Below, one piece after another: positions 44,870 through 45,662 of a DNA stretch of 64,000 bases. The notes beneath the pieces were generated by a model, which saw nothing but the letters and a program-made list of their open reading frames with translations, was not told where the DNA came from and did not search any database. Both the position numbers and the translations under genes were made by a program. The stretch covers positions 106,787-170,786 of the forward strand of contig JAZDKJ010000008.1 of NCBI GenBank assembly GCA_043803105.1, in the 5' to 3' direction. Source of the DNA: Candidatus Woesearchaeota archaeon (lineage in GTDB: Archaea; Nanobdellota; Nanobdellia; Woesearchaeales; JAZDKJ01). How positions within the stretch are numbered: the first letter of the stretch is position 1; each line of letters starts with the position of its first letter.

Positions 44870-45662
44870 GAATAAAATGTGCCAAGCAGTTAACAGAGCC
44901 AGTTGGTGAAAATCCAACCATGTAGCCAAAATGACAGGCGTTACCGCAAGGAAAGCGCTGAAGGGTCTGAGGCAAAGTCCAGCCCATATCCTGCAAGGGA
45001 TGCAAAAGGCTAGGCAGATGACACCTATATCGGGTCGGTGGTAGGTGGAAATCACAAAAAAGCCTAATGCGGATGGATGAAACGGTTTTGTTAATGACCT
45101 TGGGAGATCCCACTGGACATGCTTGCATAAGCATTAAAAAGTGGGAAGTCAGCTTACTTCATAGTACCGAAAGGGAAGGAGGTAAACCTCAATGCTCGAC
45201 GATAATTACGTGCTTGGGCTTGTTGATGGAGAAGGGTCCTTCAATGTGATGATAAGTCATAACAAAAGAAGGGCCAAGGTGGAATTGAAATTCTGCCTGA
45301 AACTTCGACATCAAGACAAAGAGGTGCTTGACGAGCTTCAAACCTTTTTTGGATGCGGCAAAGTGTACATCCAAAGAGACAAGAGAGCTAATCACTCTCT
45401 GTGTTACAGATTTGAAGTGCAAAACAAGAAAGAGATTGTCCAAAAGATTATCCCTTTTTTCGAAAAGCACCAACCAAAATTACCAAGCAGAAAACGAGAC
45501 TTTGAGCTATTCAGGCAAATCACGGAAATCTCAACAAGAGAGCCTGTTGATTTGGGAAAGATTGAAGAGCTCAAGGGAAAATTGCATTGGGGGCTCGCCG
45601 TATACAGGAAAACTGTACGTGCGGTGGGAACGCCAAGTAACCCAATGGGTGAAAAAGGCAAT
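44870..45662 (+). mobile_element. Group IIC-like intron in 16S (~E. coli 1400) encoding a LAGLIDADG endonuclease
   Basis: Splits CACACC|GCCCGTC; GTGCC at 44879, EBS loop 45029-45040, DIII GAAGTCAGC..CATAGTACC..GGGAAGG, DV 45594-45628 with CGC triad and CG bulge, ends in AAT. Confidence 0.88.

Follow-up and report, generated by a model that had tools for sequence, protein, structure and literature searches.

A probable group II-type intron with a LAGLIDADG homing endonuclease gene in the decoding-site sequence of an archaeal 16S rRNA gene

Results

A 64,000 nt stretch of the genome of Candidatus Woesearchaeota archaeon (assembly GCA_043803105.1, contig JAZDKJ010000008.1), called the window below, contains an archaeal rRNA operon, in which the 16S gene (Rfam SSU_rRNA_archaea, from 43319, 1236 bits) and the 23S gene (LSU_rRNA_archaea, 46088-49355, 2543.6 bits in the Rfam scan of the window) were recognised. 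The 16S gene is interrupted by an insert of 793 nt at 44870-45662 (window coordinates; all intron features given below are on the + strand). Judged by comparison of its sequence with related copies, this insert is very probably a mobile group II-type ribozyme intron that carries a LAGLIDADG homing endonuclease gene in its domain IV instead of a reverse transcriptase (RT). An RT-less intron of this kind in the decoding-site sequence of an archaeal 16S gene had been proposed in a first-pass annotation of the same DNA, and the fold, its covariation and a Pfam match, described below, all speak for it.

The 16S exons were matched on both sides of the insert: the match up to model position ~1347 ends at 44869 and that of positions 1344-1467 resumes at 45659. 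The uninterrupted site, ...CACACCGCCCGTCA..., is present in all four genomes of the same order that were checked. As a G is common to both ends of the insert, these matches make its boundaries certain only to within 1 nt; the ambiguity was settled in favour of 44870-45662 by an exon-binding loop that pairs with both exons. We take the site to lie between C1400 and G1401 (E. coli numbering), in the decoding centre. A single small-subunit (SSU) rRNA gene was found in the 1.56 Mb assembly, which is 96.5% complete, and the intron is single-copy. As the sole SSU gene is interrupted, the insert must be removed for a working ribosome to be made.

A protein search with the translated open reading frame (ORF) of the insert gave 895 homologues at E ≤ 1e-5. 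The best 120 are all at least 65% identical to it, and those named among them are Woesearchaeota, Nanoarchaeota or 'archaeon'. A protein-guided scan, with one genome per species, then gave 61 loci, and both exon borders could be placed in 57 of these; L055, L058, L060 and L064 were excluded because the available stretch contains no 5' exon. The 57 homologous introns comprise 22 archaeal-type and 35 bacterial-type copies and all lie at the same 16S site to within 1 nt. The titles of the archaeal-type records name Woese-, Pace-, Nano- and Micrarchaeota, with three under other labels, one of which has archaeal SSU exons; the bacterial-type loci that have a group name are nearly all Patescibacteria/candidate phyla radiation (CPR). 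For the comparisons that follow, L011, L043 and L052 (domain V disrupted or not found) were excluded from the domain V/VI alignment and folds, L009, L017, L025, L052 and L056 (unclear ORF start or aberrant copy) from the 5' alignment, and L057 (ORF of 86 amino acids) from the tree.

A domain V was identified near the 3' end of the insert, at 45594-45628, by Rfam match, alignment and covariation. It contains a CGC triad (45596-45598), the middle G of which is in a G·U wobble, a 4 bp upper helix, a two-nucleotide bulge and a GAAAA loop. All 14 pairs are formed in the window copy. Over 55 homologues, 99.9% of cells are paired and compensatory changes are seen in 5 of the 14 pairs, while the CGC triad is invariant in all 55 aligned sequences. 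None of 500 shuffles scored as high, and sliding the partners reduced the paired cells to 26-49%. The position of domain V and its triad had been correctly seen in the first-pass annotation, but the bulge, given there as CG, is AC (45617-45618) in the register supported by covariation.

Rfam models gave matches to three parts of the insert. Intron_gpII matched 45593-45641 (22.5 bits against a curated cut-off of 40, E = 0.066), and this domain V match is the best to the model in the whole 1.56 Mb genome (E = 0.024). Matches to group-II-D1D4-1 at 45114-45181 (27.6 bits, cut-off 35, E = 0.009) and to group-II-D1D4-4 at 44900-45005 (14.9 bits, cut-off 49, E = 1) were also obtained, and the three are collinear and in the expected domain order. 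The covariance-model search that had been advised for this DNA thus found both domain V and two D1D4 regions, although below the curated cut-offs.

Upstream of the ORF, a fold was predicted with RNAalifold from 53 sequences and assessed by pair counts. Domain I (44879-45103) begins with a conserved GUG (44879-44881), which is directly followed by helix I(i) (44882-44886 with 45099-45103), the latter spotted by eye. Within it are a long-range stem (44890-44896 with 45088-45094), a hairpin (44902-44918), an arm ending in a GCAA loop (44925-44973) and a second arm (45016-45054), the terminal loop of which carries exon-binding site 1 (EBS1). Domain II, read from the sequence, is a hairpin at 45110-45144 (CCACU...AGUGG with an inner hairpin) and varies in length among the homologues. 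The J2/3 segment GAAGUCAGC (45145-45153), found in conserved form in at least 90% of the 53 sequences, leads into domain III (45154-45185). This region matches group-II-D1D4-1 (27.6 bits), and domain III has compensatory changes in 8 of its 9 helix pairs. The 3' strand of domain III contains the sequence GGAGGU, 9 nt upstream of the ORF start.

RNAalifold predicted 45 pairs in domains I-III, 39 of them with compensatory changes. When helix I(i) is included the named structure has 48 pairs in 10 helices, with 95.1% of cells paired (36-45% when slid) and compensatory changes in 42 of the 48 pairs; with domain V added, such changes are found in 47 of the 62 ribozyme pairs tested. The window copy forms 44 of the 48 pairs of domains I-III. 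The order of the domains, I, II, III, IV (holding the ORF), V and VI, is that of the group II multi-domain fold.

As far as sequences can tell, the most telling result for a ribozyme is the covariation between the exon-binding loop and the exons, which was tabulated over 53 introns. In the window, the 5' exon ends in ACACC (44865-44869, ending at what we take to be C1400), as placed from this table and from intron-less alleles. Its CACC is intron-binding site 1 (IBS1) and pairs with EBS1, GGUGG (45037-45041), in the exon-binding loop (45036-45041); the neighbouring C45036 pairs with G45663, the first base of the 3' exon (presumably G1401). In the archaeal copies the splice site is after C1400, and all 20 have a loop of the form C+GGUG(G/A) with exons (A/U)CACC/G, the stroke marking the splice site. 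In the bacterial copies it is after C1399: 30 of the 33 have loop G+GUGAG with exons CUCAC/C, and the remaining three have loop A+GUGAG with exons CUCAC/U. The pair between the loop and the start of the 3' exon is therefore G:C in 30 introns, A:U in 3 and C:G in 20, and EBS1 is GUGAG where the splice site follows C1399 but GGUGG where it follows C1400. Because the loop tracks both exons across this one-base shift, selection on it implies that the RNA itself positions the exons.

One further exon position, which we take to be E. coli 1396, differs between hosts. It is U in the 5' exons of all 33 bacterial hosts and of 5 of the 20 archaeal hosts (L004, L015, L016, L019 and L020), and A in the window and in four intron-less relatives. 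The exon U pairs with the last base of EBS1, and L016 has a fully compensated A-U pair. The presence of U here could be due to co-conversion of the flanking exon during homing or to a requirement of splicing.

Domain IV holds an ORF of 167 amino acids (45192-45695), identified from the ORF list, its homologues and Pfam as a single-motif LAGLIDADG_1 homing endonuclease (PF00961, E = 9.8e-18, 65.4 bits with a cut-off of 23.1 bits). Within the motif, D12, G13, E14 and G15 do not vary among 22 homologous sequences. Its closest PDB relatives are of two kinds, single-domain endonucleases from rRNA introns and the halves of I-OnuI-type enzymes (E = 1e-22). No group II maturase domain was found in the genome. 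The bacterial endonuclease ORFs (L021-L057) stop just before domain V, a stop that the archaeal copies lack; in the window the ORF reads through domains V and VI and then 33 nt into the 3' exon. As the stop codon lies in the 3' exon, the excised intron would carry none. Translation of the archaeal ORF through domain V (within 45590-45695 in the window) gives a strongly conserved C-terminal peptide, ...HWGLAVYGKTVRAVGT..., the conservation of which probably reflects the RNA rather than the protein.

Of the 23 archaeal copies, 17 have an ORF of at least 125 amino acids, as do 32 of the 35 bacterial ones. Four archaeal copies of 389-435 nt have no ORF, and a few copies are degraded. Among 401 genomes of the window's order, close orthologues (at least 69% identity) occur in four, including that of the window (G000), and distant LAGLIDADG genes in four others; these counts are lower bounds, as many of the assemblies have no rRNA genes. 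The occurrence of intact, ORF-less and degraded copies and their patchy distribution fit a homing cycle.

The GUG motif is not at the very 5' end of the intron. An A-rich linker of 9 nt (44870-44878), recognised by comparison of copies, separates it from the 5' splice site. Of 23 archaeal copies, 19 have a linker of 9 nt and the rest one of 8-11 nt; in the bacterial copies it is 7 nt in 34 of 35 (range 7-8 nt). Canonical group II introns have five bases ahead of helix I(i), and as this helix starts right after GUG here, the 5' extension can be counted as 7 or 9 nt. At the other end the intron closes with AU in all 22 archaeal copies, and in 17 of the 33 bacterial ones.

Domain VI (45632-45662) was compared in the folds of 22 archaeal and 33 bacterial copies. 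In the window it consists of a 3 bp basal helix, GCC (45632-45634) with GGC (45657-45659), an A-rich internal loop, a distal hairpin and the tail AAU; the archaeal copies generally have this layout, with a large A-rich internal loop between a basal helix of 2-3 bp and the distal hairpin. An A is present at both -7 and -8 in all 22 archaeal copies, within the internal loop, and in minimum-energy folds the -7 A is unpaired in 21 of the 22 and the -8 A in all. In the bacterial copies the 3' strand is continuous, the -7 base being paired in 32 of 33 folds and a G in 10 of 33. No single bulged branch-point A was seen in domain VI 7-8 nt from the 3' end. The nine extra 5' nucleotides, the AY end and a GCC...GGC-AAT domain VI with its -7 A in an A-rich internal loop had all been described in the first-pass annotation, and each of them is present. 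In 17 of the 22 archaeal copies the internal loop of domain VI (45635-45656 in the window) has AGUA in its 5' strand and GAA in its 3' strand; this is presumably the consensus of a loop-E/sarcin-ricin-type motif. If the motif forms, the remaining unpaired As at -7 to -9 would make a small asymmetric bulge beside the 3 bp basal helix, but the signal is weak since three ORF-less copies lack AGUA/GAA and the region is also coding.

The archaeal bulge-helix-bulge (BHB) motif was looked for at the exact junction as two 3 nt bulges 4 bp apart that carry the splice sites, the four pairs being formed by the last exon bases before the 5' cut with the last intron bases before the 3' cut. In all 23 archaeal copies no more than two of the four central-helix pairs can form, in agreement with the earlier reading that the junction has no BHB. 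A looser form of the criterion is unspecific, being passed by 188 of 2000 random position pairs. Three other inserts in the same 16S gene served as controls and each form all four central pairs: 44044-44195 (152 nt, UUAG/CUAA), 44315-44347 (33 nt, ACUG/CAGU) and 44513-44540 (28 nt, GCCG/CGGC). A cut after the second bulge base joins their exons without gap or repeat, and the joined exons match what we take to be the consensus 16S sequence; by sequence they look like ordinary archaeal BHB introns. A BHB intron was thus rejected for 44870-45662, the junction of which cannot form the motif in any of the 23 archaeal copies. A group I intron was likewise rejected, as Intron_gpI gave no match in 44780-45780 at E up to 10. 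The 23S gene does contain a group I intron, at 48022-48272 (Rfam Intron_gpI, 80.3 bits, E = 8.4e-19), so that three types of intron, BHB, group I and group II-type, are present in this one rRNA operon.

Archaeal introns can be aligned with bacterial ones over the linker and domains I-III, a 5' part in which 50 columns are invariant, and also over domain V, but only roughly over domain VI. Their endonucleases are 39-50% identical and the ORF is in domain IV in both. The endonuclease tree has one split between archaea and bacteria (97/97 support), with the archaeal clade on a long branch. Rooted with L058, the tree puts the archaeal clade inside the bacterial ones, but with an outgroup branch of 9.9 changes per site and a bootstrap that had not stabilised. 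A DNA-level search of 60 relatives with the intron gave two short, chance-sized matches only. As the RNA aligns, the ORF position, site and linker are shared and the endonucleases are homologous, the copies are considered to form one family, and the data point to one origin plus one cross-domain transfer.

The labels of four records seem questionable. L013 is labelled Gammaproteobacteria, yet has archaeal SSU exons (361 bits). L038 bears the same label, but its ORF has only CPR-named relatives among the 120 matches listed, and the label is probably a binning error. L009 is labelled 'Euryarchaeota' and L011 'Methanosarcinales'.

Discussion

Several points weigh against a group II-type ribozyme. 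None of the three Rfam group II matches appears in the window scan at gathering thresholds, all being below the curated cut-offs, and no group II family exceeded its gathering threshold in six homologous loci scanned. The names given to the helices within domain I are our own reading. Much of the covariation separates archaea from bacteria and so represents few independent events, the changes in exon binding being perhaps two or three, and the shuffle control takes no account of relatedness. The intron does not start with GUGYG but has GUG(C) behind the linker, and with this shifted motif and a domain VI that has no canonical bulged A, catalytic competence is not guaranteed. Among 22 sequencing runs listed, the best, an RNA run, contained 0.28 of the sampled words of a 1101 nt query, a value that coincides with the share of exons in the query (308 nt) and carries no weight as evidence.

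These features might suggest a dead relic, in which host RNases remove the insert without ligation, as happens with bacterial intervening sequences, leaving a fragmented 16S rRNA. The unmet Rfam cut-offs and the non-canonical 5' end and domain VI are what this would predict. Compensatory changes in 47 of 62 pairs, a J2/3 segment shared by at least 90% of 53 sequences and a triad invariant in 55 are not, and an exon-binding loop that tracks both exons is needed only if the RNA holds them for cleavage and ligation; a relic is therefore improbable. It is harder still to see the insert as a BHB or group I intron with a LAGLIDADG gene. The operon does have both kinds, with three BHB introns in its 16S gene and one group I intron in its 23S gene, and both are known to carry LAGLIDADG genes (PMC6125680). 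With at most two of four central pairs in 23 of 23 copies, no Intron_gpI match and homologues in bacteria, the chance of either is close to nil. A group II-type ribozyme intron remains by far the better description. Bacteria, which host some of the homologues, are not known to have a BHB splicing endonuclease.

How such an intron would start its own excision is less clear. The first step of splicing seems somewhat more likely to be hydrolysis than lariat formation, as GUG is behind a 9 nt linker and domain VI has no single bulged A; 'splicing by hydrolysis', like 'homing', was a reasonable inference in the first-pass annotation. An upstream-shifted 5' splice site together with loss of the branch motif is described for LAGLIDADG mitochondrial rRNA introns and for one clostridial intron (PMC4424553), and IIC introns mostly fail to branch in vitro (PMC4748821). 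The same element could instead splice by branching, an unpaired A at -7 to -9 of domain VI attacking the 5' splice site to give a lariat. The As at -7 and -8 are present in all 22 archaeal copies and unpaired in 21 and 22 of the folds respectively, and lariat formation has been shown for one LAGLIDADG group II intron in which domain VI is altered (PMC13190283). This route is possible but doubtful, given that no single A is bulged between two continuous helices, that the bacterial -7 base is paired in 32 of 33 folds and is a G in 10 of 33, that IIC introns seldom branch in vitro, and that a linker of 7-11 nt precedes GUG, a combination tied to branch-site loss (PMC4424553). As to where the archaeal copies come from, the first-pass annotation had favoured an independent archaeal origin of the architecture on a IIC-like scaffold. 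The archaeal endonucleases do form one clade on a long branch from the bacterial ones, and the archaeal copies differ in linker length, domain VI, ORF end and splice site. Set against this are an RNA that aligns (50 invariant 5' columns and domain V), the same ORF position, a shared linker, the same site within 1 nt and endonucleases that are 39-50% identical, and separate origins are hence very unlikely. Descent of the archaeal copies from a shared family is preferred: it seems fairly likely that the intron family crossed between CPR bacteria and DPANN-type archaea and that the archaeal splice site was re-set by 1 nt through coupled changes in EBS1 and the neighbouring base.

By sequence, the archaeal introns are best described as the archaeal branch of the bacterial '16S position 1400'/rns-1396 family. 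In 2024, Tsurumaki et al. reported 53 group II-like insertions ('16IS9') in CPR 16S genes, all at position 1400; LAGLIDADG ORFs were present in 39 of these and an RT in none (PMC11270868). For direct comparison, 35 CPR-type loci were recovered in the present scan and 33 aligned. They have the ribozyme in common with the archaeal introns, including its domain V and the motifs of J2/3 and domain III. In both groups the linker is A-rich, domain IV carries a single-motif LAGLIDADG_1 ORF and the site is the same to within 1 nt. The archaeal introns differ in their host, in splicing after C1400 and not C1399 with the matching change in the loop, in a linker of 9 nt and not 7 nt, and in a large A-rich internal loop in domain VI where CPR introns have a near-continuous helix. 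They have also lost the ORF stop ahead of domain V, and their endonucleases are 39-50% identical to the CPR ones. In splice-site register, linker length, domain VI and ORF end the archaeal branch is thus distinct.

The rns-1396 IIC-LHE introns were reportedly found in giant sulfur bacteria by Salman et al. in 2012. According to a study of 2026, introns of the IIC 'rns-1396' family carry a single-motif endonuclease in domain IV and are reported only from Thiotrichaceae; all members have a 5'-terminal linker and none has EBS2 or IC2 (PMC13190283). The window intron is like these, as described in that study (PMC13190283), in its 16S site near 1396-1400, its single-motif endonuclease in domain IV and its 5' linker. 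The archaeal/CPR family is probably the same as rns-1396, the comparison with rns-1396 being by descriptions alone and that with the CPR copies by sequence.

IIC introns are marked by a CGC triad, a small ribozyme of ~400 nt and the lack of EBS2. The traits seen here are the invariant CGC triad, ORF-less copies of 389-435 nt and a best D1D4 match to model 1. IIC features are likewise listed for rns-1396 (PMC13190283). No terminator-type hairpin target was found for the window intron. A solved IIC intron (PDB 4FAW) is assigned to Rfam group-II-D1D4-3 in one paper, and the IIC assignment of the insert is without confirmation from a model, since its best match is D1D4-1 and not D1D4-3; this is a further point on the negative side. 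A 'IIC-like' backbone is plausible.

Fungal mitochondrial IIB1 rRNA introns with LAGLIDADG ORFs, 5' insertions and a lost branch point were described by Li et al. in 2011 (cited in PMC4424553). Like the window intron, they are RT-less, carry an endonuclease, reside in rRNA genes, have their splice site upstream of the 5' motif and have an altered domain VI, and the window endonuclease resembles the I-OnuI-type fungal enzymes (E = 1e-22). The backbone is different, however, that of the window intron having the CGC triad and a ribozyme of ~390-435 nt, so the features are analogous and the families are not the same. Among archaea, RT-encoding group II introns are known in, for example, Methanosarcina (PMC6125680; bioRxiv 10.1101/2024.12.10.627823). 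Like them, the window intron would be a group II ribozyme of probable bacterial origin that resides in an archaeon. Where they encode an RT/maturase, it lies in rRNA and has a homing endonuclease, in a genome without a maturase domain. Nawrocki et al. reported in 2018 group I, not group II, introns in archaeal rRNA, including group I introns in DPANN 23S genes (PMC6125680), and in a preprint on archaeal group II introns the search was by maturase alone. No published LAGLIDADG group II intron in an archaeal rRNA gene was found, although supplementary tables (Table S3 of PMC11270868, Tables S1-S4 of PMC13190283), which were outside the search, could list such hosts. As far as this literature search reached, the archaeal host range of the family is unreported.

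Splicing, its chemistry, the activity of the endonuclease and the direction of transfer are what we infer from these comparisons. Domain I would hold the exons, with EBS1 GGUGG on CACC and the neighbouring C on the first G of the 3' exon, and domain V together with J2/3 would form the catalytic centre, so that the RNA itself could excise the intron and join the exons. The endonuclease, probably a homodimer, would cut an intron-less 16S gene at the site, and repair would copy the intron in, amounting to homing at the DNA level. One transfer between the domains of life may have been followed by the one-base move of splice site and exon-binding loop.

Archaeal introns have been taken to be nearly all BHB introns, with a small number of RT-type group II introns and, from 2018 on, group I introns in addition (PMC6125680). 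If the present interpretation is correct, an RT-less, endonuclease-driven group II ribozyme in an archaeal 16S gene would be a fourth kind. If the transfer between bacteria and archaea is also correct, this would be the first report of a ribozyme-type group II intron from an archaeal rRNA gene, a single transcript would contain all three of the intron classes that prokaryotes are known to have, and the archaeal branch would be widespread, to judge from the 895 protein homologues. The same mobile element would then reside in ultra-small bacteria and ultra-small archaea; by record titles, groundwater is the source of many copies of both kinds. The move of the splice site by one base, together with the matching changes in the loop, would amount to a natural experiment in ribozyme retargeting. 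There is also a practical consequence. The insert presumably lies inside the binding site of universal 1392/1406-type primers and adds ~0.8 kb to the 16S gene, and for these two reasons amplicon surveys are likely to miss or mis-size such archaea.

Other elements of the operon

The 16S-23S spacer contains a tRNA-like gene at 45845-45992, in which the acceptor, D arm and T arm are recognisable. ARAGORN found no tRNA in the window. The anticodon may be UGC. As many as three short inserts seem to interrupt the gene, and the one in the T loop is compatible with a BHB-like motif.

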